A model generated the notes under the pieces. It ran no database searches. It was not told the origin of the DNA and worked only from the letters and a program-made list of their open reading frames with translations. The position numbers and the translations under genes were made by a program. This document shows positions 1 to 57,494 of a stretch of DNA of 64,000 bases, one piece after another. This DNA comes from Escherichia coli. GTDB lineage: Bacteria; Pseudomonadota; Gammaproteobacteria; Enterobacterales; Enterobacteriaceae. The stretch is from assembly GCF_003334405.1 (NCBI RefSeq), contig NZ_QOWM01000008.1; one strand, given 5' to 3'. Numbering within the stretch: the stretch's first letter is position 1; each line of letters opens with the position of its first letter.

Positions 1-1553
1 ACTGGGATGAAAGTGATGTCGTGTTAATTACCTATGCCGATCAATTTCACAGCAATGATTTAAAACCATTACCCACATTTAATCAGTTTTACCATCAATG
101 GCTGCAAAGCATTTTTTCACATGTTCATTTGTTGCCGTTTTATCCATGGTCATCTGATGATGGCTTTTCGGTAATTGATTATCATCAGGTCGCCAGTGAA
201 GCGGGGGAGTGGCAGGATATTCAGCAACTCGGTGAATGCAGTCATTTAATGTTTGATTTTGTCTGCAACCATATGTCGGCAAAAAGTGAATGGTTTAAAA
301 ACTATTTACAACAGCATCCAGGTTTTGAAGATTTTTTTATTGCCGTTGACCCGCAAACCGATCTCAGCGCCGTCACTCGCCCGCGTGCGTTACCGTTATT
401 AACGCCATTCCAGATGCGCGATCATTCAACGCGCCATTTATGGACCACCTTTAGTGACGATCAAATTGACCTGAATTACCGTAGCCCTGAAGTGTTGCTG
501 GCGATGGTGGATGTTTTACTCTGTTACCTTGCGAAAGGTGCTGAGTATGTCCGCCTGGATGCCGTTGGCTTTATGTGGAAAGAGCCGGGAACAAGCTGCA
601 TCCATCTGGAAAAAACACATCTGATTATCAAACTGTTACGGTCGATTATTGATAACGTTGCGCCAGGTACAGTGATCATTACCGAGACCAATGTTCCGCA
701 TAAAGACAACATTGCTTACTTTGGCGCAGGCGATGACGAAGCACATATGGTGTACCAGTTCTCGCTGCCGCCACTGGTGCTGCATGCGGTGCAAAAACAG
801 AACGTTGAGGCGCTTTGTGCGTGGGCGCAAAACCTGACACTACCTTCCAGCAACACCACCTGGTTTAACTTCCTCGCCTCTCACGATGGCATCGGGCTAA
901 ACCCGCTACGGGGCTTGTTGCCTGAAAGCGAAATATTAGAGCTGGTCGAGGCGTTACAGCAGGAAGGTGCATTAGTAAACTGGAAAAATAATCCCGACGG
1001 TACACGCAGTCCGTATGAAATAAATGTGACCTATATGGATGCGTTAAGCCGCCGTGAGAGTAGCGATGAAGAACGTTGCGCCAGGTTTATCCTTGCCCAT
1101 GCGATTTTGTTAAGTTTCCCCGGTGTGCCAGCGATATATATTCAAAGTATTCTTGGCTCGCGTAATGATTACGCAGGTGTCGAAAAAATCGGATATAACC
1201 GTGCGATTAACCGTAAAAAATATCACAGTAAAGAGATAACCCGAGAACTGAACGATGAAGCTACATTAAGGCATGCGGTATATCATGAGTTGTCGCGTTT
1301 AATTACACTTCGTCGCAGCCATAACGAGTTTCATCCGGATAATAATTTTACCATTGATACGATTAATTCATCCGTAATGCGTATTCAAAGAAGTAACGCT
1401 GATGGTAATTGTCTGACTGGATTGTTTAATGTCAGTAAAAATATTCAGCATGTAAATATTACTAATCTGCATGGTCGGGATCTGATTAGTGAAGTTGATA
1501 TATTGGGTAATGAAATAACGCTGCGCCCCTGGCAGGTTATGTGGATTAAATAA
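1..1553 (+). CDS. ycjM: Sucrose-phosphorylase-family (GH13) enzyme, glucosylglycerate phosphorylase; 5' end lies outside the window
   Basis: Frame is open from position 1 to the stop at 1553; translation recognised as E. coli YcjM; first gene of the ycj cluster. Confidence 0.85.
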   Translation, partial: WDESDVVLITYADQFHSNDLKPLPTFNQFYHQWLQSIFSHVHLLPFYPWSSDDGFSVIDYHQVASEAGEWQDIQQLGECSHLMFDFVCNHMSAKSEWFKNYLQQHPGFEDFFIAVDPQTDLSAVTRPRALPLLTPFQMRDHSTRHLWTTFSDDQIDLNYRSPEVLLAMVDVLLCYLAKGAEYVRLDAVGFMWKEPGTSCIHLEKTHLIIKLLRSIIDNVAPGTVIITETNVPHKDNIAYFGAGDDEAHMVYQFSLPPLVLHAVQKQNVEALCAWAQNLTLPSSNTTWFNFLASHDGIGLNPLRGLLPESEILELVEALQQEGALVNWKNNPDGTRSPYEINVTYMDALSRRESSDEERCARFILAHAILLSFPGVPAIYIQSILGSRNDYAGVEKIGYNRAINRKKYHSKEITRELNDEATLRHAVYHELSRLITLRRSHNEFHPDNNFTIDTINSSVMRIQRSNADGNCLTGLFNVSKNIQHVNITNLHGRDLISEVDILGNEITLRPWQVMWIK

Positions 1554-1566
1554 AAAGGAACATCTC

Positions 1567-2859
1567 ATGATTAAATCAAAAATCGTGCTGTTATCAGCAC
1601 TGGTTTCATGCGCCCTGATTTCAGGCTGTAAAGAAGAAAATAAAACGAATGTATCCATCGAATTTATGCATTCTTCGGTGGAGCAGGAGCGCCAGGCCGT
1701 TATCAGTAAATTGATTGCCCGTTTTGAAAAAGAAAACCCTGGCATCACCGTTAAGCAAGTGCCCGTGGAAGAAGATGCCTATAACACTAAAGTCATTACT
1801 CTTTCACGTAGCGGTTCGCTGCCGGAAGTGATCGAAACCAGCCATGACTACGCCAAAGTGATGGACAAAGAGCAGCTTATCGATCGCAAAGCGGTTGCCA
1901 CAGTCATCAGCAACGTTGGTGAAGGCGCGTTTTACGATGGCGTACTGCGTATTGTGCGTACCGAAGATGGTAGCGCATGGACCGGTGTTCCTGTCAGCGC
2001 CTGGATTGGCGGTATCTGGTATCGCAAAGATGTGCTGGCAAAAGCGGGGCTTGAGGAGCCGAAAAACTGGCAACAGCTGCTGGACGTTGCACAGAAACTG
2101 AATGACCCGGCGAATAAAAAATACGGCATTGCGCTGCCTACAGCAGAAAGCGTGTTGACGGAACAATCCTTCTCCCAGTTTGCGTTATCCAACCAGGCTA
2201 ACGTCTTTAACGCCGAAGGCAAAATCACCCTTGATACACCAGAGATGATGCAGGCACTGACCTATTACCGCGACCTTGCTGCCAACACTATGCCGGGTTC
2301 TAACGACATCATGGAAGTGAAAGACGCCTTTATGAACGGCACCGCGCCGATGGCGATTTACTCCACCTATATCCTTCCGGCTGTGATTAAAGAAGGCGAC
2401 CCGAAAAACGTCGGTTTCGTGGTGCCAACCGAGAAAAACTCTGCGGTCTACGGCATGTTGACCTCGCTGACCATTACCGCCGGGCAAAAGACCGAAGAGA
2501 CGGAAGCAGCAGAAAAATTTGTCACCTTTATGGAGCAGGCAGACAACATTGCCGACTGGGTGATGATGTCGCCAGGTGCTGCGCTGCCGGTGAATAAAGC
2601 GGTGGTGACTACCGCCACCTGGAAAGACAACGACGTTATTAAGGCGCTGGGTGAACTACCGAATCAGCTAATCGGTGAACTGCCAAATATTCAGGTTTTT
2701 GGCGCAGTAGGGGATAAAAACTTTACCCGCATGGGTGATGTGACGGGTTCTGGCGTGGTGAGTTCAATGGTGCATAACGTCACCGTGGGTAAAGCCGATC
2801 TCTCTACTACGCTGCAAGCGAGCCAGAAAAAACTGGATGAACTGATCGAACAGCACTAA
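1567..2859 (+). CDS. ycjN: ABC transporter periplasmic sugar-binding protein
   Basis: 430-aa ORF with N-terminal signal peptide and lipobox-like LISGC; sits directly after ycjM. Confidence 0.85.
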   Translation: MIKSKIVLLSALVSCALISGCKEENKTNVSIEFMHSSVEQERQAVISKLIARFEKENPGITVKQVPVEEDAYNTKVITLSRSGSLPEVIETSHDYAKVMDKEQLIDRKAVATVISNVGEGAFYDGVLRIVRTEDGSAWTGVPVSAWIGGIWYRKDVLAKAGLEEPKNWQQLLDVAQKLNDPANKKYGIALPTAESVLTEQSFSQFALSNQANVFNAEGKITLDTPEMMQALTYYRDLAANTMPGSNDIMEVKDAFMNGTAPMAIYSTYILPAVIKEGDPKNVGFVVPTEKNSAVYGMLTSLTITAGQKTEETEAAEKFVTFMEQADNIADWVMMSPGAALPVNKAVVTTATWKDNDVIKALGELPNQLIGELPNIQVFGAVGDKNFTRMGDVTGSGVVSSMVHNVTVGKADLSTTLQASQKKLDELIEQH

Positions 2860-2879
2860 ACCCAGGACAGGAATCCGCA

Positions 2880-3761
2880 ATGAACAGGCTTTTTTCAGGT
2901 CGTTCCGATATGCCCTTTGCGCTGCTGCTTCTCGCGCCCAGCTTATTACTGCTGGGCGGTCTGGTGGCGTGGCCGATGGTGTCGAATATCGAAATCAGTT
3001 TTTTACGTCTGCCGCTCAATCCCAACATCGAGTCAACGTTTGTTGGGGTGAGCAACTATGTGCGTATCCTCTCCGATCCCGGCTTCTGGCATTCGCTGTG
3101 GATGACGGTCTGGTATACCGCGCTGGTGGTGGCGGGCAGCACCGTGCTCGGGCTGGCGGTGGCGATGTTTTTCAACCGCGAGTTCCGCCTGCGCAAAACC
3201 GCGCGTTCGCTGGTGATCCTCTCCTACGTAACGCCGTCCATTTCGCTGGTGTTCGCCTGGAAATACATGTTCAACAACGGCTACGGCATTGTTAACTACC
3301 TCGGCGTCGATCTTCTGCATCTCTATGAGCAGGCACCGCTGTGGTTCGATAATCCGGGCAGTAGCTTTGTGCTGGTGGTGCTGTTCGCCATCTGGCGCTA
3401 CTTCCCGTATGCCTTTATCTCGTTTCTGGCGATTTTGCAGACCATCGACAAATCGCTGTACGAAGCGGCAGAGATGGATGGCGCTAATGCCTGGCAACGG
3501 TTTCGTATCGTCACGCTGCCCGCAATTATGCCGGTCCTGGCGACGGTGGTGACACTGCGCACCATCTGGATGTTCTACATGTTCGCGGATGTTTATTTGC
3601 TGACGACCAAGGTCGATATTCTCGGTGTATATCTCTACAAAACCGCCTTTGCCTTTAATGATTTAGGAAAAGCGGCGGCGATCTCGGTGGTGCTCTTCAT
3701 CATTATTTTCGCTGTCATTCTGCTGACCAGGAAACGGGTGAACCTCAATGGCAACAAATAA
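2880..3761 (+). CDS. ycjO: ABC transporter permease
   Basis: 293-aa multi-helix hydrophobic protein of the MalF/UgpA type; overlaps the next permease gene. Confidence 0.85.
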   Translation: MNRLFSGRSDMPFALLLLAPSLLLLGGLVAWPMVSNIEISFLRLPLNPNIESTFVGVSNYVRILSDPGFWHSLWMTVWYTALVVAGSTVLGLAVAMFFNREFRLRKTARSLVILSYVTPSISLVFAWKYMFNNGYGIVNYLGVDLLHLYEQAPLWFDNPGSSFVLVVLFAIWRYFPYAFISFLAILQTIDKSLYEAAEMDGANAWQRFRIVTLPAIMPVLATVVTLRTIWMFYMFADVYLLTTKVDILGVYLYKTAFAFNDLGKAAAISVVLFIIIFAVILLTRKRVNLNGNK

Positions 3762-4590
3762 ACGCACACTCAGTCGCATCGGTTTTTACTGCGAGCTGGC
3801 GCTGTTTCTCATCATCACGCTGTTTCCATTTTTTGTGATGCTGATGACCTCGTTCAAGGGCGCGAAAGAGGCGATCTCACTGCATCCTACGCTGCTGCCG
3901 CAGCAGTGGACGCTGGAGCATTACGTCGACATTTTTAACCCGATGATTTTCCCGTTTGTCGACTACTTCCGTAACAGTCTGGTGGTGTCTGTGGTTTCAT
4001 CCGTGGTGGCGGTATTCCTCGGCATTCTTGGGGCTTACGCGCTTTCCCGCCTGCGCTTTAAAGGTCGGATGACCATCAACGCCAGCTTTTACACGGTGTA
4101 TATGTTCTCTGGCATTTTGCTGGTGGTGCCGCTTTTCAAAATCATCACCGCGCTTGGCATTTACGACACTGAGATGGCGCTGATCATCACCATGGTGACG
4201 CAAACTCTGCCCACCGCCGTGTTTATGCTGAAAAGCTACTTCGACACCATCCCCGATGAGATCGAAGAAGCGGCGATGATGGATGGCCTCAACCGTCTGC
4301 AAATTATCTTCCGCATCACCGTGCCGTTGGCGATGTCCGGGCTGATATCCGTGTTCGTCTACTGCTTTATGGTGGCGTGGAACGACTATCTGTTTGCGTC
4401 GATTTTCCTCTCCAGCGCCAGCAATTTCACCTTACCGGTGGGCCTGAACGCGCTGTTCAGTACGCCAGATTACATCTGGGGACGGATGATGGCGGCCTCA
4501 CTGGTGACCGCATTGCCGGTGGTGATTATGTATGCGCTTTCGGAACGTTTTATTAAGAGTGGTTTGACCGCCGGTGGCGTGAAGGGCTAA
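3748..4590 (+). CDS. ycjP: ABC transporter permease
   Basis: 280-aa hydrophobic protein of the MalG/UgpE type; start overlaps the ycjO stop. Confidence 0.85.
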   Translation: MATNKRTLSRIGFYCELALFLIITLFPFFVMLMTSFKGAKEAISLHPTLLPQQWTLEHYVDIFNPMIFPFVDYFRNSLVVSVVSSVVAVFLGILGAYALSRLRFKGRMTINASFYTVYMFSGILLVVPLFKIITALGIYDTEMALIITMVTQTLPTAVFMLKSYFDTIPDEIEEAAMMDGLNRLQIIFRITVPLAMSGLISVFVYCFMVAWNDYLFASIFLSSASNFTLPVGLNALFSTPDYIWGRMMAASLVTALPVVIMYALSERFIKSGLTAGGVKG

Positions 4591-4620
4591 AGCGGCCAGT
4601 TTCTTTACAAGGAGTTTTAA

Positions 4621-5673
4621 ATGAAAAAGTTAGTAGCCACAGCACCGCGTGTTGCTGCGCTGGTTGAGTATGAAGATCGGGCGATTTTAGCTAATGAAGT
4701 GAAGATCCGCGTGCGTTTCGGCGCACCGAAACACGGAACGGAAGTGGTCGACTTCCGCGCCGCCAGCCCGTTTATTGATGAAGACTTTAACGGCGAATGG
4801 CAGATGTTCACTCCGCGTCCGGCAGATGCGCCGCGCGGCATTGAGTTTGGCAAATTCCAGCTTGGCAACATGGTGGTTGGCGACATTATCGAGTGCGGCA
4901 GCGACGTTACCGACTACGCGGTGGGCGACAGCGTATGCGGCTACGGCCCGCTCTCCGAGACGGTCATCATTAACGCAGTGAATAACTACAAGCTGCGCAA
5001 AATGCCGCAAGGCAGCTCCTGGAAAAACGCCGTCTGCTACGACCCGGCGCAGTTTGCCATGAGCGGCGTGCGCGATGCCAACGTGCGCGTAGGGGATTTT
5101 GTGGTGGTGGTAGGGCTTGGCGCAATCGGTCAAATTGCCATCCAACTGGCTAAACGCGCTGGCGCTTCTGTGGTGATTGGCGTCGATCCTATCGCCCATC
5201 GCTGTGATATTGCCCGTCGCCACGGCGCGGATTTCTGCCTTAACCCCATCGGCACTGATGTAGGTAAAGAGATCAAAACGCTGACCGGCAAGCAGGGTGC
5301 CGATGTGATTATCGAAACCAGCGGCTACGCCGACGCGCTGCAATCGGCGCTCCGCGGTCTGGCTTATGGCGGCACCATCTCCTATGTCGCGTTTGCCAAG
5401 CCGTTTGCCGAAGGTTTTAACCTCGGACGCGAAGCGCATTTCAATAACGCCAAAATTGTCTTCTCTCGCGCGTGCAGCGAACCGAACCCGGATTATCCGC
5501 GCTGGAGCCGCAAGCGTATTGAAGAAACCTGTTGGGAACTGCTGATGAACGGTTATCTCAATTGCGAAGATTTAATCGACCCGGTGGTGACCTTTGCCAA
5601 TAGCCCGGAAAGCTATATGCAGTATGTCGACCAGCATCCGGAACAGAGCATCAAAATGGGCGTTACGTTTTAA
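4621..5673 (+). CDS. ycjQ: Zn-dependent sugar dehydrogenase (MDR family)
   Basis: 350-aa ORF with a Rossmann GLGAIG motif; SD sequence AAGGAG upstream. Confidence 0.8.
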   Translation: MKKLVATAPRVAALVEYEDRAILANEVKIRVRFGAPKHGTEVVDFRAASPFIDEDFNGEWQMFTPRPADAPRGIEFGKFQLGNMVVGDIIECGSDVTDYAVGDSVCGYGPLSETVIINAVNNYKLRKMPQGSSWKNAVCYDPAQFAMSGVRDANVRVGDFVVVVGLGAIGQIAIQLAKRAGASVVIGVDPIAHRCDIARRHGADFCLNPIGTDVGKEIKTLTGKQGADVIIETSGYADALQSALRGLAYGGTISYVAFAKPFAEGFNLGREAHFNNAKIVFSRACSEPNPDYPRWSRKRIEETCWELLMNGYLNCEDLIDPVVTFANSPESYMQYVDQHPEQSIKMGVTF

Positions 5674-5691
5674 TTCAAAGGAATGAAAAAA

Positions 5692-6480
5692 ATGAAAATC
5701 GGCACACAGAATCAGGCGTTCTTTCCGGAAAACATTCTGGAGAAATTTCGTTATATCAAAGAGATGGGCTTCGATGGTTTTGAGATTGACGGCAAACTGC
5801 TGGTTAACAACATCGAAGAAGTCAAAGCGGCGATCAAAGAAACCGGTTTACCGGTGACCACCGCCTGCGGTGGCTATGACGGATGGATTGGCGACTTTAT
5901 CGAAGAGCGTCGTCTTAATGGCTTAAAGCAGATCGAGCGCATTCTCGAAGCGCTGGCAGAAGTGGGCGGTAAAGGCATCGTCGTTCCGGCTGCGTGGGGC
6001 ATGTTTACCTTCCGCTTACCGCCGATGACCTCGCCGCGTAGCCTGGACGGCGACCGCAAAATGGTGAGTGATTCCCTGCGCGTACTGGAACAGGTCGCCG
6101 CGCGTACCGGAACCGTGGTGTATCTCGAACCGTTAAACCGCTATCAGGATCATATGATCAACACCCTCGCCGATGCCCGCCGTTACATCGTCGAAAACGA
6201 TCTTAAACATGTACAGATTATCGGCGATTTCTATCACATGAATATCGAAGAAGATAACCTGGCGCAGGCGCTGCATGACAACCGCGACCTGCTCGGTCAT
6301 GTGCATATTGCGGATAACCATCGCTACCAGCCGGGCAGCGGCACCCTGGATTTCCACGCGCTGTTTGAACAGCTGCGCGCGGATAACTATCAGGGCTATG
6401 TAGTGTACGAAGGGCGTATCCGGGCGGAAGATCCTGCCCAGGCGTACCGTGATTCGTTGGCCTGGTTGCGTACCTGCTAA
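5692..6480 (+). CDS. ycjR: Sugar epimerase/isomerase, xylose-isomerase-like TIM barrel
   Basis: ORF 5683-6480; start placed at MKIGTQNQ by recollection of YcjR. Confidence 0.8.
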   Translation: MKIGTQNQAFFPENILEKFRYIKEMGFDGFEIDGKLLVNNIEEVKAAIKETGLPVTTACGGYDGWIGDFIEERRLNGLKQIERILEALAEVGGKGIVVPAAWGMFTFRLPPMTSPRSLDGDRKMVSDSLRVLEQVAARTGTVVYLEPLNRYQDHMINTLADARRYIVENDLKHVQIIGDFYHMNIEEDNLAQALHDNRDLLGHVHIADNHRYQPGSGTLDFHALFEQLRADNYQGYVVYEGRIRAEDPAQAYRDSLAWLRTC

Positions 6481-6489
6481 GAGGTCTTT

Positions 6490-7545
6490 GTGAAAAGTGC
6501 AATGACAAGCTCTCCGCTGCGGGTCGCGATAATAGGCGCAGGCCAGGTGGCGGATAAGGTTCATGCTTCGTACTACTGCACCCGCAACGATCTGGAACTG
6601 GTGGCTGTCTGTGACAGCCGCCTTTCCCAGGCGCAGGCGCTGGCAGAAAAATACGGGAATGCATCCGTGTGGGACGATCCGCAGGCCATGCTGCTGGCGG
6701 TGAAACCTGATGTGGTTAGCGTCTGCTCACCTAACCGTTTTCATTACGAACATACCCTGATGGCACTGGAAGCGGGCTGCCATGTGATGTGCGAAAAACC
6801 GCCCGCCATGACGCCAGAACAGGCGCGGGAAATGTGCGATACCGCGCGCAAACTGGGCAAGGTGCTGGCCTACGACTTTCACCATCGTTTTGCGCTCGAT
6901 ACGCAACAGCTGCGTGAACAGGTGACCAACGGCGTTTTGGGAGAGATTTACGTTACCACCGCCCGCGCCCTGCGTCGCTGCGGCGTTCCCGGCTGGGGTG
7001 TCTTTACCAATAAAGAACTGCAGGGTGGTGGCCCGCTGATCGACATCGGCATTCATATGCTGGATGCTGCGATGTATGTGCTGGGCTTTCCGGCGGTGAA
7101 AAGCGTGAATGCGCATAGCTTTCAAAAGATCGGCACGCAAAAGAGCTGTGGTCAATTTGGTGAGTGGGATCCGGCAACTTACAGCGTCGAAGATTCGCTG
7201 TTTGGCACCATTGAATTTCATAACGGCGGCATTCTGTGGCTGGAAACGTCATTTGCACTCAACATCCGCGAACAGTCGATTATGAACGTCAGCTTTTGTG
7301 GTGATAAAGCTGGTGCGACGCTGTTTCCAGCACATATCTACACCGATAACAACGGTGAATTAATGACGCTGATGCAACGGGAAATGGCAGACGACAACCG
7401 CCATTTGCGCAGCATGGAAGCCTTTATCAATCACGTACAGGGCAAGCCCGTGATGATAGCCGACGCCGAGCAGGGGTACATCATCCAGCAACTGGTGGCG
7501 GCGTTGTATCAATCCGCAGAAACAGGGACGCGTGTGGAATTATGA
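6490..7545 (+). CDS. ycjS: Gfo/Idh/MocA-family NAD-dependent oxidoreductase
   Basis: 351-aa ORF with N-terminal Rossmann motif IIGAGQ; GTG start. Confidence 0.8.
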   Translation: MKSAMTSSPLRVAIIGAGQVADKVHASYYCTRNDLELVAVCDSRLSQAQALAEKYGNASVWDDPQAMLLAVKPDVVSVCSPNRFHYEHTLMALEAGCHVMCEKPPAMTPEQAREMCDTARKLGKVLAYDFHHRFALDTQQLREQVTNGVLGEIYVTTARALRRCGVPGWGVFTNKELQGGGPLIDIGIHMLDAAMYVLGFPAVKSVNAHSFQKIGTQKSCGQFGEWDPATYSVEDSLFGTIEFHNGGILWLETSFALNIREQSIMNVSFCGDKAGATLFPAHIYTDNNGELMTLMQREMADDNRHLRSMEAFINHVQGKPVMIADAEQGYIIQQLVAALYQSAETGTRVEL

Positions 7546-34111: not shown

Positions 34112-34211
34112 CTGCATAAAAAAATAGAGTCTGTCGACATCCGCCAGACTCTACAGTACACACAGCAGTGCATCCGCGTCTTAAATCCGGCATTGTCTCC
34201 TCTGCGCCGGT
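34112..34211 (-). ncRNA. mcaS: McaS (IsrA) small regulatory RNA
   Basis: Minus strand reads ACCGGCGCAGAGGAGACAAUGCCGGAUUUAAGACGCGGAUGCACUGCUGUGUGUACUGUAGAGUCUGGCGGAUGUCGACAGACUCUAUUUUUUUAUGCAG, matching my recollection of McaS, with a terminal hairpin and U-run. Confidence 0.7.
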
Positions 34212-34438
34212 GACTGTGTTATAACGGTTTTAACCTTTAGTTGCCAATTTTCTTCAGTGACAGATTTCACGAAAATATAAGTTACATTATTAATATCGTG
34301 AATGAATAATCATGCATAAGTATTTTGCTTAAAATATCGGCAATATTTGGAACTTATTACTGGAAATTTGGGTAATACGTTGTTGGACCGACCCGGTCTG
34401 GTTATCATATCGCGCTCTTAATTGCGGGAGGATGTAAC

Positions 34439-35002
34439 ATGAACCTTGACGACAAATCGCTGTTTCTTGACGCCATGGAAGATGTCCAGCCGCTGAAACG
34501 TGCTACCGATGTCCACTGGCATCCAACGCGTAACCAACGTGCGCCGCAGCGTATCGACACGCTGCAGCTTGATAATTTCCTCACCACCGGATTTCTCGAC
34601 ATCATCCCACTAAGTCAGCCGCTGGAGTTTCGGCGGGAAGGGTTGCAACATGGGGTGCTGGATAAGCTGCGCAGTGGTAAATATCCGCAACAGGCGAGCC
34701 TGAATCTTTTGCGCCAGCCGGTGGAAGAGTGCCGCAAAATGGTGTTCAGTTTTATTCAACAAGCCCTGGCGGATGGTTTGCGTAACGTGCTGATTATTCA
34801 TGGTAAAGGGCGGGATGATAAATCGCATGCCAATATTGTCCGCAGCTATGTGGCGCGCTGGCTGACCGAATTTGATGATGTTCAGGCATATTGCACCGCG
34901 CTACCGCATCATGGCGGCAGCGGGGCGTGTTACGTCGCACTACGTAAAACGGCGCAGGCGAAGCAAGAAAACTGGGAGCGCCACGCTAAGCGCAGTCGTT
35001 GA
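34439..35002 (+). CDS. smrA: Smr-domain DNA endonuclease
   Basis: 187-aa ORF with C-terminal Smr-like region (LIIHGKG). Confidence 0.8.
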   Translation: MNLDDKSLFLDAMEDVQPLKRATDVHWHPTRNQRAPQRIDTLQLDNFLTTGFLDIIPLSQPLEFRREGLQHGVLDKLRSGKYPQQASLNLLRQPVEECRKMVFSFIQQALADGLRNVLIIHGKGRDDKSHANIVRSYVARWLTEFDDVQAYCTALPHHGGSGACYVALRKTAQAKQENWERHAKRSR

Positions 35003-35022
35003 TCTCGAGACGCATCCGCGGC

Positions 35023-36255
35023 TTATGCCGCCAGCACGCGGTTGCGTCCATCATTTTTCGCCCGATACAAAGCATCATCAACGCGTTTAAACAGTTCATC
35101 GATGCTTTCATTTCCTTCGTGATGCGCCACACCAATGCTGACGGTAAAGCGTGGTAAGCCCGAAATACTCACTTTTGCCACGCTTACGCGGATAGTTTCA
35201 GCCAGCGAAAGCGCGGTATCCAGTGGGGTTCTTGGTAGCAATAAGACAAACTCTTCGCCTCCCCAACGAAACACCAAATCGCCTTTGCGAGCGCAACTTT
35301 CGAGGGTGCGGGCGAGGGCGCATAACACCTCATCACCTTTAGAATGCCCATAGAGATCGTTAATGTGTTTAAAACGATCGGTGTCGATGAGCAACAAGCT
35401 GTAATCCTGAGCGATGGCGAGATGCTGCATTTGGCCTGGTTCCGTAATGTGATAAAACTGTCGCCGATTCAGTAATCCGGTCATCGCGTCATGGTGAGCA
35501 GCATGTTCCAGCTGCTCCTCCAGCCGTTTTTGCTCAGTAATATCATGCACAATACATAACATGAGCTTGTCGCCATAAATTTCAATCGGTCCGGCATAGG
35601 TCTGCACATGACGAGTCGAACCATCCGCCAGTTTATGAACAAAATTCAAAGGTTTATGACCACCGGGTAAATGCGAGATTTCATGCATGATAGGCATGAC
35701 GCGACGCCCGAGCATATTTATTTCCCAGGTATGTTTCTGGCACATCGTTTCATGGTTATAACCATAGAAATTGAGCGCGGCGAGGTTAGCATCGACGATT
35801 TGTCCATCTCGTGACGGGTCAATCAACAACATTGGTGCAGAGTTAGTCAGAAAAAAGCGCGCATAAAAACCTTGTTTTTTGCGCTGATAATTTGCCGAGC
35901 GACTGGCTTTTAAACCCAGCGTTGCCGGCGCTTCGATACCTTCGAAAATAATCACCGGTTCTGTTTCTGTCAGCTTTCGCAAAACAAGCCGACAGCTCAA
36001 TGCTGTTTCCTCTTCTTTACGCTGAACAGTGAGGATTTCGATAATATCGTGTTGGTTTTGCAGATCGGAGAGGTATTTCGGCAGTTCTTTTTGTGAGGAG
36101 ACGGAATAGGGTCCGGTTCGTAGCTGACTAAACGTGAGGTCTTGCATCAACAGTTTCGCCGCGCTATTGGCATAAATTAACTGTTCCTCAAAGGGCGAAA
36201 CGATCCAGACAGGACTGGTGAGTAAGTCCAGGGTATTGAAGTTGTGCGTAATCAT
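35023..36255 (-). CDS. dgcM: PAS-PAS-GGDEF diguanylate cyclase
   Basis: ORF 35023-36315; GGEEF motif present; start placed at MITHNFNTLDLL. Confidence 0.85.
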   Translation of the reverse strand: MITHNFNTLDLLTSPVWIVSPFEEQLIYANSAAKLLMQDLTFSQLRTGPYSVSSQKELPKYLSDLQNQHDIIEILTVQRKEEETALSCRLVLRKLTETEPVIIFEGIEAPATLGLKASRSANYQRKKQGFYARFFLTNSAPMLLIDPSRDGQIVDANLAALNFYGYNHETMCQKHTWEINMLGRRVMPIMHEISHLPGGHKPLNFVHKLADGSTRHVQTYAGPIEIYGDKLMLCIVHDITEQKRLEEQLEHAAHHDAMTGLLNRRQFYHITEPGQMQHLAIAQDYSLLLIDTDRFKHINDLYGHSKGDEVLCALARTLESCARKGDLVFRWGGEEFVLLLPRTPLDTALSLAETIRVSVAKVSISGLPRFTVSIGVAHHEGNESIDELFKRVDDALYRAKNDGRNRVLAA

Positions 36256-36488
36256 TGAGATCCCGTTATTTTTATCAATTTTTGTTGCTATCCGATCGCA
36301 AAAAAGCCACGTCATATGATCAGATAATTCTGATAATGATAGACGCTATTTAACACTTCACACGGTTTGTATACGGAAAAGCATTTTGCTTTTTGTATTC
36401 AATTTAGACAGAATTTTATTAATCATTTCAGGGTAATGGGGTGATGAGATGTTGCGTAACAGGGCCAGAAGGCTAGACTACAAAATAA

Positions 36489-37493
<1,005 letters not shown>

Positions 37494-37538
37494 CAAAAGC
37501 AATTTTTCCGGCTGTCTGTATACAAAAACGCCGCAAAG

Positions 37539-37552
37539 TTTGAGCGAAGTCA
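37539..37552 (+). promoter_or_regulatory. FNR box upstream of fnrS
   Basis: TTGAGcgaaGTCAA, close to the TTGAT-N4-ATCAA consensus, about 40 nt upstream of the proposed FnrS 5' end. Confidence 0.5.
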
Positions 37553-37588
37553 ATAAACTCTCTACCCATTCAGGGCAATATCTCTCTT

Positions 37589-37710
37589 GCAGGTGAATGC
37601 AACGTCAAGCGATGGGCGTTGCGCTCCATATTGTCTTACTTCCTTTTTTGAATTACTGCATAGCACAATTGATTCGTACGACGCCGACTTTGATGAGTCG
37701 GCTTTTTTTT
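37589..37710 (+). ncRNA. fnrS: FnrS small RNA
   Basis: Sequence from GCAGGUGAAUGCAACGUCAAGCGAUGGGCG to the terminator hairpin GCCGACUUUGAUGAGUCGGC plus U8, matching recalled FnrS. Confidence 0.75.
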
Positions 37711-37767
37711 GCCTGTTATTTATCAGCGTCTACCCTTTAAGAGTCCACCCAATGACCAGAGGGAAAT

Positions 37768-52039: not shown

Positions 52040-52406
52040 GAAAAGTCCTTTTGAACATATAGGAATATATTAGAGCATGAATGTGTGCAATGCATAAAAG
52101 AAAAAGCTACCGCAAGGCGACTCCACCCACAGATAGCTCTTAATTGATTGTTTGTAAAAAATAATACATTAATTATCTTCTGTGTAAAGAGGGAAACAGC
52201 CTTAGGGTAAGGGACACGAGTTGGGGGGATTGGTGAAATTTGCGTTGAGGATAAAACGATTTGCGGGAAAAGGATAGTTAAGTAGAATTGCTGCGGGTGC
52301 TTGAGGCTGTCTGCCTCGGGCATGAACACCAAAGGCAGATAGAGAAAAGCCCCAGTTAACATTACGCGTCCGGCAAGACGCTTAACATTAATCTGAGGCC
52401 ACATCT

Positions 52407-52655
52407 ATGCTTTGCATACGTAGATTAGCCTCTTACCGACCAAAAGGTCAAGGAGAAGCAGGCTATGAAGCAGCAAAAGGCGATGTTAATCACCCTGATC
52501 GTCATCTGTTTAACCGTTATAGTGACGGTACTGGTAACGAGGAAAGACCTCTGCGAGGTACGAATCCGAACCGACCAGACGGAGGTCGCTGTCTTCACAG
52601 CTTACGAACTTGGGGAGTAAGAGGACCAGCGGGGAGAAATCCCCGCAACCTCTGA
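52407..52655 (+). CDS. mok: mok-like overlapping reading frame (start uncertain)
   Basis: 82-codon ORF in another frame that fully overlaps hok, as in hok/mok/sok loci. Confidence 0.4.
   Translation: MLCIRRLASYRPKGQGEAGYEAAKGDVNHPDRHLFNRYSDGTGNEERPLRGTNPNRPDGGRCLHSLRTWGVRGPAGRNPRNL
52465..52620 (+). CDS. hok: Hok-family type I toxin (51 aa)
   Basis: Hand-translated MKQQKAMLITLIVICLTVIVTVLVTRKDLCEVRIRTDQTEVAVFTAYELGE, near-identical to recalled HokD/RelF; AAGGAG 9 nt upstream. Confidence 0.8.
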   Translation: MKQQKAMLITLIVICLTVIVTVLVTRKDLCEVRIRTDQTEVAVFTAYELGE

Positions 52656-53683: not shown

Positions 53684-53973
53684 TGGTGAATTTACGTAAA
53701 GCGGCTAAAGGCCAGATGTGCCAGATCAGAATCCCTGGCTACTACAATCACAATCCCGAAACCTCTGTGCTGGCGCATTACAGGCTGGCGGGGACGTGCG
53801 GAACAGCGACAAAACCACATGATATGCAGGCGGCGATAGCCTGTAGCTCATGCCACGATCTAATCGACGGGCGGGTAAAAACCAGCGATTACACCAAAGA
53901 AGAATTGCGCCTGATGCATGCTGAAGGGGTTTTTCGCACACAAGAAATCTGGAGAAAGAAAGGTCATTTATGA
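53683..53973 (+). CDS. Small Cys/His-rich nin-region protein (YbcO-like)
   Basis: 96-aa ORF with C...C...H...C..C.H spacing; ATGA overlap with the upstream gene. Confidence 0.45.
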   Translation: MVNLRKAAKGQMCQIRIPGYYNHNPETSVLAHYRLAGTCGTATKPHDMQAAIACSSCHDLIDGRVKTSDYTKEELRLMHAEGVFRTQEIWRKKGHL

Positions 53974-54512
53974 TTTACCCAACGAATACAGGAAAAAGCG
54001 GAGAACACCTTCGCCTCACCACGCTGGAAAGTGTCTGGATTCAGGGAAAACTACGTATGTGGGGGCGCTGGTCGTATATTGGCGGTGGCAGGTCAGGGAA
54101 TATGTTCAATCAGTTGTTGGCATCCAAAAAACTGACGAAAACAGCCATTAATGAAGCCCTGCGCAGAATGAAAAAAGCGGGAATAGAGAAAGCTGAGCTG
54201 GAAGCGTTTTTGCGAGAGATGATCAACGGCAAGCAAAAGAGCTGGCTGGCGCATTGTACTGATGCAGAGGCGTTATGTATTGATCGAGTCATAAGTGAGG
54301 TGCTGGCAGAGCATCCAGGATTGATTTGCATTCTCCGGCAACGCTATGAAGGGCGGGGGATGACTAAGCGCAAAATGGCTGAATTGCTAAATGATGCACA
54401 CCCAGAGTGGTGTTTTAGCACATGCGAAAAACGGATTGCTAATTGGTTAGCTGTTGCTGAGTATGCCCTACATATTCCCATGCGTGAATCATTTGCTGAG
54501 AAAATGGCTTGA
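53970..54512 (+). CDS. Late-gene antiterminator Q-like protein
   Basis: 180-aa ORF in the Q position (after nin genes, before terminators and the lysis cassette); assigned mainly by position. Confidence 0.55.
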   Translation: MIYPTNTGKSGEHLRLTTLESVWIQGKLRMWGRWSYIGGGRSGNMFNQLLASKKLTKTAINEALRRMKKAGIEKAELEAFLREMINGKQKSWLAHCTDAEALCIDRVISEVLAEHPGLICILRQRYEGRGMTKRKMAELLNDAHPEWCFSTCEKRIANWLAVAEYALHIPMRESFAEKMA

Positions 54513-54592
54513 TTTCTTACGTATAAACTGCTTCAATTTTGCTATGCTTCGCAAAGCTGTATCGCGAGGCGGATTGCAGACATGGACATCGT

Positions 54593-54619
54593 AAAAAAAC
54601 CGCTTAATGCGGTTTTTTT
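54593..54619. terminator. Intrinsic terminator downstream of Q (candidate tR')
   Basis: 11-bp perfect stem AAAAAAACCGC-ttaat-GCGGTTTTTTT. Confidence 0.55.
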
Positions 54620-54938
54620 ACGTCAGGAAAGCAGGGGAGAATGCTGCTAGTTGGGCAACTGGTCTTTCTGCTCCAAATTATAACAGAGACCAGTTATAGT
54701 TTCGGTGCTGTGTTTTTTTACAATATTGTGATAACACATTGCTGGCGGGAGTTTTGATATTTCTTGGCAGGGGCTGATGATGCGTTATCCTGATGTCGTC
54801 AACTCATATAAAATGAGATGAGAGATCATTGCAGGGTGGTTTGTAATTCGCTGTTTAGCGGGACAATATGTTGTCTGATACAAGACACCCGACGCCTCAG
54901 ATTACTATAATAAAGACGAAGCATCCTTTGTATTGACC

Positions 54939-54966
54939 AACCGCCTGTTTAGGCGGTTCTTTTTGG
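54939..54966 (+). terminator. Second intrinsic terminator in the Q-to-lysis spacer
   Basis: Hairpin CCGCCT-gttt-AGGCGG followed by TTCTTTTT. Confidence 0.5.
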
Positions 54967-55555
54967 GCTGGTTTATTGTATGCCAAATGATTATTAAAAA
55001 GGTTGTGTTAATAACAAAATCCGAAATAATATGCCTGCATATTTTTATCTTGCTTATATTCTGCATATTGTGCATAGCAGGCTCATCCCTGCAATCAAAA
55101 CTGTATGATGAGTATTTTTTGTTTTCCTTTTTTCCAGTCATCTGATGATGACCTGCTTCTTTTTAATCCGGATCGACATCAGTTTTTTAAGATAATTCCT
55201 GCGAGTTATATGCATAAATGCCACAAACTCCGCATTTTATGTGGTTGGGAGTTGCCGGGCGCGCAGTGAGTTTGCTAAGAAAACTCCTGCATGGTGAATC
55301 CCCCTGTGCGGTGGGGTGATACCATTAACCTTTTCTGTCGCCGACAGGTATCACGAACATTTTGTTCACCGGGAGGCACCCGGCACCATGTACTTCAATA
55401 GATTCTCTCCACATTATGGATATTCTTTCAGAATATCCCACGCAGACTTTGTGTAAATGTTAACAAATGTGCGTTTTATTTGATCTGATTCGCTGTTTGA
55501 GCGTCCAAAACAACGGTATATATAATCCTTTACTATATGACATATGTGAGGAAAA

Positions 55556-55984
55556 ATGGGTTTTCGTAGCGCATCAATTCTTACGTTGATTATTAGTGGG
55601 ATTATTATCGGGTGCACTGATGCTGTATCGACAAATTATCATGACCGTACATCATATTACTCCGATAAAGCAATAGAGACACAGTATGTGAGTTCATCTG
55701 AACGTACTTCTGATGTTAGTGAGGATATCCGTCTGTATGCCCATCAAATCAAGAGCGCCATCGAAAAACAGTTCGGGGATGCGAGTAAGTATTCAGGAAA
55801 AGAGTGTACACTGAGAATGCATATGGCCCCGAATGGCCTTCTACTGGAGGTTAAAAGAGAAAGTGGAGACCTCGATTTATGTCGTGAAGCGATGAATGCG
55901 ATAAAGAATGCTGATATACCTGCCCCCCCTTCGCCGGAAGTATATAAAGTATTTCAAAATGGGGTGCTGGATTTTAAACCCTGA
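55556..55984 (+). CDS. Lipoprotein with TolA C-terminal (domain III)-like fold, copy 1
   Basis: Signal peptide with lipobox IIGC; C-terminal QIKSAIEKQF...GKECTLRMHMAPNGLLLEV...LCREAMNAI...IPAPPSPEVYKVFQNGVLDFKP resembles recalled TolA domain III. Confidence 0.6.
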   Translation: MGFRSASILTLIISGIIIGCTDAVSTNYHDRTSYYSDKAIETQYVSSSERTSDVSEDIRLYAHQIKSAIEKQFGDASKYSGKECTLRMHMAPNGLLLEVKRESGDLDLCREAMNAIKNADIPAPPSPEVYKVFQNGVLDFKP

Positions 55985-56134
55985 TATTTATTGTTTTGTA
56001 ATAAACGGTTTCGGCTTAGGTTTGTTCTGACACAGCTACGGCACTGAGCTAAATTTAGCGGATAGTCAGCTCTGAGCCAGTGGCGGACGTAACAACTACT
56101 ATTGCTGAGATTTTAATGGATTGAGGAGCAAGAA

Positions 56135-56530
56135 GTGGGATTAAAGAAAATCGTTATGTTGACTTTTTGGGTCGGTTTTGTTGCGGGATGCACACCTTTA
56201 CACCCTTCAGATTGCCACAAAACTACTGCTACAGGTAGTTGCAGTTCAGGACGCTGGGATGATCAGGATGAATGGGGGGCGCAAGCGCGGGGAATCAGAG
56301 CTGCAATTAATGCCAAACTTGATGAGCCGCATAACTGGAAAGGGAAAAAATGCAGGTTGCATATGGAATTCTCTCAGGATGGCACGGCGTTAAAAATATC
56401 TACCAGTAACGGTGATAAAGCCTATTGCGAAGCGATAAAGTCCGCAGCTCATAAAGCCAAATTTCCGGCCTTCAACAATCCGGAAGTCTACAGAGATTTT
56501 CAGAAATCTGGCTTTGACATGCGAGGTTAG
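56135..56530 (+). CDS. Lipoprotein with TolA C-terminal-like domain, copy 2 (divergent paralogue)
   Basis: GTG start after GAGGAG; lipobox VAGC; KKCRLHMEFSQDGTALKI...YCEAIKSAAHKAKFPAFNNPEVYRDFQKSGFD parallels copy 1. Confidence 0.55.
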   Translation: MGLKKIVMLTFWVGFVAGCTPLHPSDCHKTTATGSCSSGRWDDQDEWGAQARGIRAAINAKLDEPHNWKGKKCRLHMEFSQDGTALKISTSNGDKAYCEAIKSAAHKAKFPAFNNPEVYRDFQKSGFDMRG

Positions 56531-56655: not shown

Positions 56656-56679
56656 AGCTCGCTACGGCGAGCTTTTTAT
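56656..56679 (+). terminator. Intrinsic terminator after the lipoprotein pair
   Basis: Hairpin AGCTCGC-tacg-GCGAGCT followed by TTTTTAT. Confidence 0.5.
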
Positions 56680-56781
56680 ATTGCATCGTCTCCAGCATAT
56701 ATATCAATTAAGGCTCTGATTGATGTGTCTGAAAGCCTACACATAATAACTATGCCATCCGTTCCGTGCGGAGGTGAGGCT

Positions 56782-56997
56782 ATGAAATCCATGGACAAAA
56801 TTTCAACAGGCATTGCCTACGGCACCTCCGCAGGCAGTGCTGGCTACTGGTTTTTACAGTTGCTCGATAGAGTAACTCCGTCACAGTGGGCTGCAATCGG
56901 TGTGCTGGGTAGTCTGGTATTTGGCCTGCTGACGTACCTGACAAACCTTTATTTCAAGATTAAAGAAGATAAGCGCAAGGCTGCGAGAGGTGAATAA
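56782..56997 (+). CDS. Phage-21-type class II holin (pinholin)
   Basis: [31 protein letters not shown]...KAARGE closely matches recalled S21; dual-start MKSM; two transmembrane segments. Confidence 0.85.
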
Positions 56998-57494
56998 TGC
57001 CTCCATCATTACGAAAAGTCGTTGCTGCTGCTATTGGTGGCGGAGCAATTGCTATAGCATCAGTGTTAATCACTGGCCCAAGTGGTAACGATGGTCTGGA
57101 AGGTGTCAGCTACATACCATACAAAGATATTGTTGGTGTATGGACTGTATGTCACGGGCATACAGGAAAAGACATCATGCTCGGTAAAACGTATACCAAA
57201 GCAGAATGCAAAACACTCTTGAATAAAGACCTTGCCACGGTCGCCAGACAAATTAACCCGTACATCAAAGTCGATATACCGGAAACAACGCGCGGCGCTC
57301 TTTACTCATTCGTTTACAACGTGGGTGCTGGCAATTTCAGAACATCGACGCTTCTTCGCAAAATAAACCAGGGCGATATCAAAGGCGCATGTGATCAGCT
57401 ACGTCGCTGGACATATGCTGGCGGTAAGCAATGGAAAGGTCTCATGACTCGTCGTGAGATTGAGCGTGAAATCTGTTTGTGGGGTCAGCAATGA
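56997..57494 (+). CDS. SAR endolysin (lysozyme, phage-21 R type)
   Basis: N-terminal Gly/Ala-rich signal-anchor-release segment ([18 protein letters not shown]) plus lysozyme core; start overlaps holin stop (TAATG). Confidence 0.85.

Follow-up and report, generated by a model that had tools for sequence, protein, structure and literature searches.

A stretch of 64,000 nucleotides (nt) from an Escherichia coli genome (contig NZ_QOWM01000008.1; the whole stretch is hereafter called the window) carries, in a prophage between a Q-like gene and the holin gene, two open reading frames (ORFs) that each consist of a lipoprotein signal peptide, a disordered linker and the C-terminal domain III of TolA (TolAIII). 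ORF1 (55556-55984, plus strand, 142 aa) has a TolAIII that closely mimics that of E. coli TolA, and ORF2 (56135-56530, plus strand, 131 aa, GTG start) has a diverged TolAIII and a conserved, Cys-containing linker. Sequence comparison shows that the combination of a lipoprotein signal with TolAIII defines a large family, one apparently not yet recognised in those terms. We propose, tentatively and with slightly less than even confidence, that ORF1 and ORF2 act as periplasmic decoys or competitors for Tol-dependent invaders, where the ligands and the protective phenotype are what we infer. Of the two, ORF1 makes the stronger case for a decoy.

The Pfam model of the TolA C-terminal domain, PF06519, matches ORF1 with an expect value (E) of 3.2e-23 and ORF2 with 1.5e-14, and phmmer searches against the TolAIII chains of the Protein Data Bank (PDB; 1S62, 3QDP, 2X9A and 1TOL) give 5e-28 and 5e-9, respectively. 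At such E-values the sequence homology of both ORFs to TolAIII is not a matter of chance. When aligned with residues 334-421 of E. coli TolA, ORF1 is identical at 52 of the 88 positions (59%) and ORF2 at 27 of 88 (31%); the two ORFs are 29% identical to each other. The alignment also places cysteines of both ORFs at C363 and C388, the disulphide cysteines of TolA, the bond itself being predicted. The C-terminal end of ORF1 reads ...EVYKVFQNGVLDFKP, as compared with ...AVYEVFKNAPLDFKP in TolA. Both proteins are full-length matches to the profile of phrog_5772 in PHROG (E 1.6e-62 and 6.7e-65), a family without assigned function.

AlphaFold2 predicts a confident C-terminal domain in both proteins, with a predicted local distance difference test score (pLDDT) above 90 and the helix and strand order of TolAIII. 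In Foldseek searches the ORF1 model superimposes best on 2X9A_B, the TolA-C chain from the complex with the IF1 phage protein g3p, with a root-mean-square deviation (rmsd) of 0.6 Å and a template modelling (TM) score of 0.96, and the ORF2 model superimposes on 3QDP with an rmsd of 1.1 Å and a TM score of 0.92. The best structural matches are TolAIII chains that were crystallised with IF1 g3p, M13 g3p or colicin A, and the C-terminal domains of TonB rank far below them. An earlier note on this DNA had described the two products as lipoproteins with a lipobox and with a C-terminus like TolAIII, paired cysteines included, the first copy being nearer to TolA than the second. The profile and PDB matches, the aligned cysteines, the two identity counts and the signal peptides described below agree with that description, and the structure prediction and superposition that the note had proposed as a check returned the TolAIII fold for both models rather than an unrelated one.

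The N-terminus of each ORF begins with a short basic segment, followed by a hydrophobic core and a lipobox. The signal peptide of ORF1, MGFRSASILTLIISGIIIGC, ends in the lipobox IIGC with the cysteine at position 20 (Cys20), and that of ORF2, (GTG)MGLKKIVMLTFWVGFVAGC, in VAGC with Cys19. Both agree with the pattern [LVI][ASTVI][GAS]C, by which lipidation is predicted, and the lipobox cysteine is conserved throughout the ORF1-type and ORF2-type families. The residue at position +2 after this cysteine is Thr in both proteins. According to the +2 rule, a lipoprotein with Thr at this position is sorted to the outer membrane; judged by this rule, ORF1 and ORF2 are probably anchored there. Between the lipid anchor and the domain lies a tether of about 30 residues, which is disordered in the AlphaFold2 models, where disorder extends over the N-terminal 40-50 residues. 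The GTG start of ORF2 is supported by the GAGGAG Shine-Dalgarno sequence preceding it and by an ATG at the matching codon in plasmid homologues. The annotation pipeline PGAP starts ORF2 at an internal ATG (56156), cutting off the basic beginning of the signal peptide, and this shorter start is probably wrong.

Neither protein is a TolA. Domains I and II of TolA are absent from both ORFs, and their N-termini are lipoprotein signal peptides instead. Against NF007065, the model of full-length TolA, ORF1 scores 107.8 and ORF2 53.7, compared with a cut-off of 213, and the match is confined to the last 80-100 or so profile positions (293-386 for ORF1). Neither ORF belongs to a tolQRA-tolB-pal operon; their locus is the prophage, between Q and the holin gene.

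TolAIII is a shared docking site for the N-terminus of TolB, the N1 domain of g3p of the Ff and IF1 phages, and colicin N (ColN), as stated in passages of two studies (PMC4339652, PMC7391070). Passages of PMC4339652, PMC3365938 and PMC7391070 locate the TolB/g3p/ColN site at helix 334-349 and strand beta3 (412-420), and the colicin A site on the opposite face, at residues 375-380 with lysines 368, 379 and 396. ORF1 is identical to TolA at 11 of 16 positions of helix 334-349, including the motif YAxQIKSAIE, and at 7 of 10 positions of strand 412-421, where LDFKP is retained exactly and neither 418 nor 420 is a proline. Of the three lysines engaged in cation-pi contacts with colicin A, ORF1 has two as well.

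The two genes are cassettes that circulate independently of each other. In blastn comparisons the cassette of ORF1 extends from 54883 to 55985, ending one base past the stop codon, and is shared by further E. coli prophages without ORF2. The cassette of ORF2 (56098/56105-56533) turns up on plasmids as well as in the chromosomes of Enterobacter and Serratia; its homology begins 30-37 nt upstream of the start codon and stops at the stop codon. A promoter that travels with ORF2 was considered and rejected, given that the homology begins only 30-37 nt before the start, and a CTGACA motif shared with an IncK plasmid further upstream is too weak to count. A recent tandem duplication is ruled out by the 29% identity and by the boundaries of two distinct cassettes. 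The earlier note had placed the genes in the slot between Q with its terminators and the lysis genes, which the assigned Q, holin, endolysin and Rz genes corroborate, and had called them paralogous: they are homologous indeed, and it is the local duplication that does not hold, in view of the independent cassettes, the separate distributions and the sharp homology boundaries.

These distributions differ in breadth. ORF1-type sequences form 46 clusters at 90% identity, and all of those with a named source come from E. coli or Shigella. Every locus inspected was a lambdoid prophage of E. coli with the gene placed between Q and the holin gene; the Q gene was of two unrelated kinds, and the neighbours varied, with an AraC-type regulator and a DUF1737/SASA-domain protein among them. 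ORF2-type sequences form 370 clusters and retain 78-89% identity across Citrobacter, Enterobacter, Klebsiella, Raoultella and Serratia. Among 5426 complete E. coli genomes, 888 contain an ORF1-like sequence, nearly always on the chromosome, and 1269 (~23%) an ORF2-like sequence, at 825 chromosomal and 525 plasmid sites; 771 genomes (~14%) contain the complete locus. In INPHARED, one phage alone, mEp460_ev081, has the ORF1-ORF2 pair, with a different Q, and IMG/VR gives 65 loci.

The relatives of ORF2 occur in diverse mobile contexts. We examined four I-complex plasmids (IncI1/B/O, IncK2/Z and IncI-gamma; MPF_I), and in each of them the homologue WP_001335086 follows the relaxase gene nikB after 68 bp and faces trbC; in one extract (L004) this gene spans 5995-6426. 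This homologue is present on pO157 too, between hok and toxB. In viral contigs, such genes occupy varied cargo positions away from lysis genes, with neighbours that we read from their ORF sequences as umuDC at a prophage end, the toxin-antitoxin pair MqsRA with an acyltransferase, and a nearby tail-fibre gene. The Serratia gene (extract L022, 6001-8736) is located between nrdDG and GmrSD (DUF262-type) together with a HEPN-domain gene, a neighbourhood that looks like a small defence island, and in Enterobacter a single copy stands among ordinary chromosomal genes.

Other subfamilies are carried by Klebsiella plasmids. On ColRNAI plasmids of ~10 kb, a TolAIII lipoprotein (123 aa, lipobox LTAC, C-terminus NAPLDFRP, 6e-24 to 1S62) and a TonB C-terminal domain protein (121 aa, Sec signal peptide, 1e-15 to 1XX3) are encoded beside genes for a colicin-like tRNase, its immunity and lysis; on the 10-kb plasmid NZ_CP044260.1 (9206-9939) the former is followed directly by the latter. 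This annotation of tolA plus TonB recurs in many of the sampled Klebsiella plasmids of 10,060 and 11,970 bp. Yet another TolAIII lipoprotein is encoded on Klebsiella IncF plasmids, immediately after a thioredoxin-fold gene. On one of them (NZ_CP079684.1, region 696-7258), a pair of genes for an ATP-binding protein and a UvrD-helicase lies a few kb away, a candidate defence pair by its resemblance to the Gabija type.

When 1.84 billion cluster representatives were searched with a profile, 632 matched. Among the best 150 of these, 92 are of at most 170 aa, and a lipobox is clear in at least 54 of the 92. All named matches are from Enterobacterales and are named by homology only. The existence of the genes is thus already known, inasmuch as databases name them by domain. 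In the full-text literature, with most subscription journals outside its coverage, no functional study of a phage- or plasmid-borne TolAIII protein was found, and the sole trace was a 'TolA protein' mentioned in passing on one cloacin-type plasmid (PMC10269471).

The proposed action as a decoy would proceed as follows. As prophage cargo, ORF1 and ORF2 would provide a TolA head without the membrane anchor (domain I) or the periplasm-spanning helix (domain II), hanging by a disordered tether from a lipid anchor in the inner leaflet of the outer membrane. From its place under this membrane, the head would meet incoming translocation domains first. Because domains I and II are absent, TolQR cannot energise or pull the orphan head, so that a bound ligand would go nowhere and remain stuck in a dead end. 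As candidate ligands we consider group A colicins and related bacteriocins, caught by their translocation domains, the N1 domain of filamentous-phage g3p (pIII), and possibly the TolB N-terminus as activated by colicins. The outcome would be a tolerant carrier cell.

Levengood-Freyermuth et al. are said to have found in 1993 that exported TolAIII confers tolerance to colicins and Ff phages. Periplasmic g3p-N1 leads to colicin A resistance and lowers phage uptake by four logs, an effect put down to the sequestering of TolA (PMC10424213). In E. coli, export of TolAIII causes leakiness (Wan & Baneyx 1998, as employed in a passage of PMC6195910). For TolA, the affinity stated in a passage of PMC4339652 is ~1 µM for ColN compared with ~40 µM for TolB, a ~40-fold difference. 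Since ColN binds so much more tightly than TolB, a decoy present at low copy could trap invaders at little cost to Tol-Pal. Phage IF1 attaches to I pili as its receptor. The g3p of this phage uses TolA-C as co-receptor, as the title of PDB entry 2X9A states. The genomic contexts described above, namely I-pilus plasmids, bacteriocin plasmids with a secreted TonB head, and phage cargo regions, fit protection of the carrier and make the decoy more plausible; the Serratia neighbourhood with GmrSD and HEPN genes fits such protection too.

A wider proposition, which we consider possible but rather doubtful, is that mobile elements of Enterobacterales commonly carry orphan heads of TolAIII or of the TonB C-terminal domain as periplasmic decoys. 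Such heads might make cells broadly tolerant, whatever the receptor, of bacteriocins that depend on Tol or Ton and of filamentous phages that are specific for a pilus. ORF1 and ORF2, the nikB-adjacent gene, the pO157 gene and the Klebsiella pair of TolA and TonB heads might then all belong to one unrecognised defence strategy, with the same reserve applying to this joint claim as a whole.

Several observations weigh against a decoy function. At the contact sites, ORF2 is identical to TolA at only 4 of 16 positions of the helix and 2 of 10 of beta3, and it has none of the three colicin A lysines; by sequence, ORF2 does not readily pass for a mimic of E. coli TolA, although beta-strand addition, according to a passage of PMC4339652, depends mainly on the backbone. 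Because ORF2 has lost most of the contact-site side chains, the decoy argument rests mainly on ORF1. A special conservation of the binding surfaces of ORF1 was considered and rejected as well, since the identity at the interfaces (69-70%) is barely above the overall 59%. The tether of ORF2 (residues 20-49, 56192-56280) reads CxPLHPSxCHKTTATGSCSSGRWDDQDEWG and thus contains two additional cysteines. It hardly varies between E. coli and Serratia, with a ratio of nonsynonymous to synonymous substitution rates (dN/dS) of 0.13, yet it is predicted by AlphaFold to be disordered. Such conservation is unexpected for a mere spacer. That the linker is as conserved as the domain points to a further ligand or working surface. 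In addition, the position of the genes directly upstream of the holin gene, in the late operon, could mean that the proteins are synthesised mainly in lytic growth, at a stage when shielding the host would serve no purpose, and the assignment of a promoter of their own is weak. Finally, the defence models of PADLOC-DB v2 gave no family match for ORF1 or ORF2.

Three other explanations were weighed against the decoy. That the ORFs are non-functional debris, i.e. tolA fragments captured by the phage, is suggested by the PGAP annotation of the identical locus in strain HKUOPY1, where ORF1 is a tolA pseudogene, 'incomplete; missing N-terminus'. ORF1 receives the label because it passes the cut-off of TIGR02794 (75.6 bits versus 59.45), even though its C-terminal part alone matches; this fault and the shortened start of ORF2 are both seen in the RefSeq annotation of extract L001 (9425-10231). 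The label is an artefact, because the frames are intact, the signal peptides are the proteins' own and dN/dS is low. By the Nei-Gojobori method, dN/dS is 0.09-0.34 for the ORF1 domain among ORF1 variants, and 0.07 for the domain of ORF2 against its plasmid homologues, the linker value being that given above; both genes are under purifying selection. Their own Shine-Dalgarno sequences, lipobox signal peptides foreign to TolA, recurrence in 888 and 1269 of the complete genomes, and dozens of other families with an identical architecture also speak against debris. Intact signal peptides, the domain dN/dS of 0.07-0.34 and the broad conservation thus rule out the pseudogene or tolA-fragment reading, whose probability we consider negligible. 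A different proposal is that the proteins are dominant-negative modulators of Tol-Pal, whose heads would compete with TolA for the TolB N-terminus at beta3 and loosen the outer membrane, easing release of progeny at Q-dependent late lysis or increasing vesicle formation in lysogens. The late transcription unit just discussed would suit such a role, and so would the beta3 strand LDFKP kept in ORF1, the single TolAIII site shared by TolB, g3p and ColN (passages of PMC4339652 and PMC7391070) and the leakiness of cells that export TolAIII (a passage of PMC6195910). We nevertheless regard it as unlikely. Enterobacter and Serratia chromosomes as well as conjugative plasmids maintain ORF2-type genes stably, and permanent envelope damage would be costly there; in other phages the cargo regions are apart from the lysis genes; and in the window a terminator sits between the unit and the holin gene, while the phage already has a complete set of holin, endolysin and spanin. 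The TolA-TolB affinity is moreover weak, at ~40 µM or more in passages of PMC7391070 and PMC4339652, so that much protein would be needed.

The TolAIII fold could alternatively have been re-used as a module for another partner, which for ORF2 would mean a role in conjugation or in the envelope, with the Cys linker in the working surface. The divergence of ORF2 at all known TolA ligand sites, the conservation of its linker with the two extra cysteines at a level like that of the domain, the position next to nikB in all four I-complex plasmids, and the thioredoxin-fold gene preceding a TolAIII lipoprotein on Klebsiella IncF plasmids are consistent with this. On the other hand, ORF2-type genes are also found where no conjugation system is present, namely in prophages and in the chromosomes of Enterobacter and Serratia, and the ORF2-type gene does not appear in passages of a transposon screen of an I-complex plasmid (PMC10286972), the gene tables of which lie outside this check. 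No data here suggest an alternative partner, and we take this explanation to be improbable. The periplasmic decoy remains the reading that we prefer, with the tentativeness expressed at the outset.

The arrangement of the locus bears on when the genes might be expressed. The Q-like late antiterminator gene (53970-54512, plus strand) matches phrog_753, 'anti-termination protein Q-like' (E 3e-78), and belongs to the DUF1133 family in PGAP. It is followed on the same strand by a strong, tR'-like intrinsic terminator (54590-54623; 14-bp stem and U run, folding free energy (dG) -19.7 kcal/mol, z -6.8) and by a second terminator-like hairpin from a consensus scan (54939-54958, plus strand), with a modest fold (z -2.0). 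A candidate sigma-70 promoter for the ORF1-ORF2 unit (55497-55526, plus strand; TTGAGC-18-TATAAT, 10 of 12 matches) lies 30 nt upstream of ORF1, and its -10 hexamer is partly conserved in a related prophage. The terminator and fold scan found no terminator between ORF1 and ORF2, and the unit ends in an intrinsic terminator at 56656-56680 (plus strand; AGCUCGC-UACG-GCGAGCU followed by UUUUUAU; dG -13 kcal/mol, z -4.1). With a terminator after ORF2, none between the ORFs and a candidate promoter before ORF1, the unit looks like a moron, i.e. a cargo unit; the terminator, the cassette boundaries and the variable neighbours are present, and the promoter is a consensus match only. Q-modified polymerase would transcribe the unit late in infection, and independent expression might occur in lysogens. 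Downstream, the lysis cassette (56782-57955, plus strand) comprises an essD-like holin, an rrrD-like endolysin and Rz, as assigned from PHROG matches (Rz-like spanin) and from PGAP at the identical locus, with Rz1 (57711-57896; lipobox VVGC) embedded in Rz. Genes for DUF1367 and DUF1364 proteins lie upstream of the Q-like gene, and trkG lies downstream of the lysis cassette.

Several RNA-like elements were also noted. An STnc100-like element (55259-55445, plus strand) matches Rfam RF02076 over its full length, with 83.4 bits compared with a gathering threshold of 47; it is located ~110 nt upstream of ORF1, within the mobile ORF1 cassette. STnc100-like sequence seems to recur downstream of the ORF1 homologue of a related prophage (extract L012, ~6740-7000), as read from 'REAPG(T/A)...' translations. 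The element may be a conserved linker or a regulatory RNA between cargo genes. After Q, isrK-like Rfam matches at 54546-54623 score 21.6 and 20.1 bits, below gathering, and the one on the plus strand (54546-54619) overlaps the strong terminator; the region could be a short leader RNA of the pR' type, at which Q acts. Rfam matches elsewhere in the window (34116-42194 and 52295-52470) are McaS, FnrS, RalA (the RalR antitoxin) and the sok antitoxin RNA. Together with trkG, they suggest that the element is a lambdoid prophage of the Rac type, which we take to be fuller than the Rac of K-12. The K-12 Rac prophage is not known to carry ORF1 or ORF2. The ORFs at 39473-41695 are presumably ttcA and an integrase, by their lengths alone.

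If the decoy reading is correct, ORF1 and ORF2 would represent a natural immunity to colicins and filamentous phages that is independent of the receptor and of a cognate immunity protein, and that works by copying the periplasmic hub which invaders must touch. It would help to explain the widespread insensitivity of natural E. coli to colicins, as well as the presence of a gene beside the relaxase on plasmids with I-type pili, and it would matter for therapies based on bacteriocins and on phages. A systematic annotation error would likewise be corrected, by which such genes are listed as 'tolA' pseudogenes or as 'cell envelope integrity protein TolA'.

Compared with known systems, both proteins share with TolAIII of E. 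coli (PF06519; 1S62, 3QDP, 1TOL, 2X9A) the alpha-beta-beta-alpha-alpha-beta order and the disulphide cysteines, and differ from it in having a lipobox signal and a short disordered tether with no link to TolQR. Engineered periplasmic TolAIII likewise places domain III alone in the periplasm; however, it is artificial, soluble, overproduced and identical to that of the host, whereas ORF1 and ORF2 are natural, predicted to be lipid-anchored, diverged and carried on mobile elements. The TolAIII lipoprotein of the Klebsiella ColRNAI plasmids has the same architecture, but it belongs to another subfamily, has an orphan TonB head as its partner and stands beside a bacteriocin, immunity and lysis operon. 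Small cargo lipoproteins and outer-membrane proteins that alter susceptibility include Cor (phi80, N15 and mEp phages), Llp (T5) and the bor and lom products of lambda. Phage morons are the subject of a review (PMC3594210). ORF1 and ORF2 have no sequence relationship to these, and while Cor and Llp block the outer-membrane receptor FhuA, the proteins described here would act at the periplasmic import hub. The superinfection immunity conferred by pIII/g3p of filamentous phages also involves competition at the periplasmic contact between TolAIII and its ligand (PMC10424213), and the proposed decoy would be its mirror image: there an overproduced ligand occupies TolA, and here a copy of the TolA head would occupy the ligand. 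A natural decoy of the periplasmic import hub would, if true, be a new variant of the exclusion and tolerance functions encoded by cargo genes.

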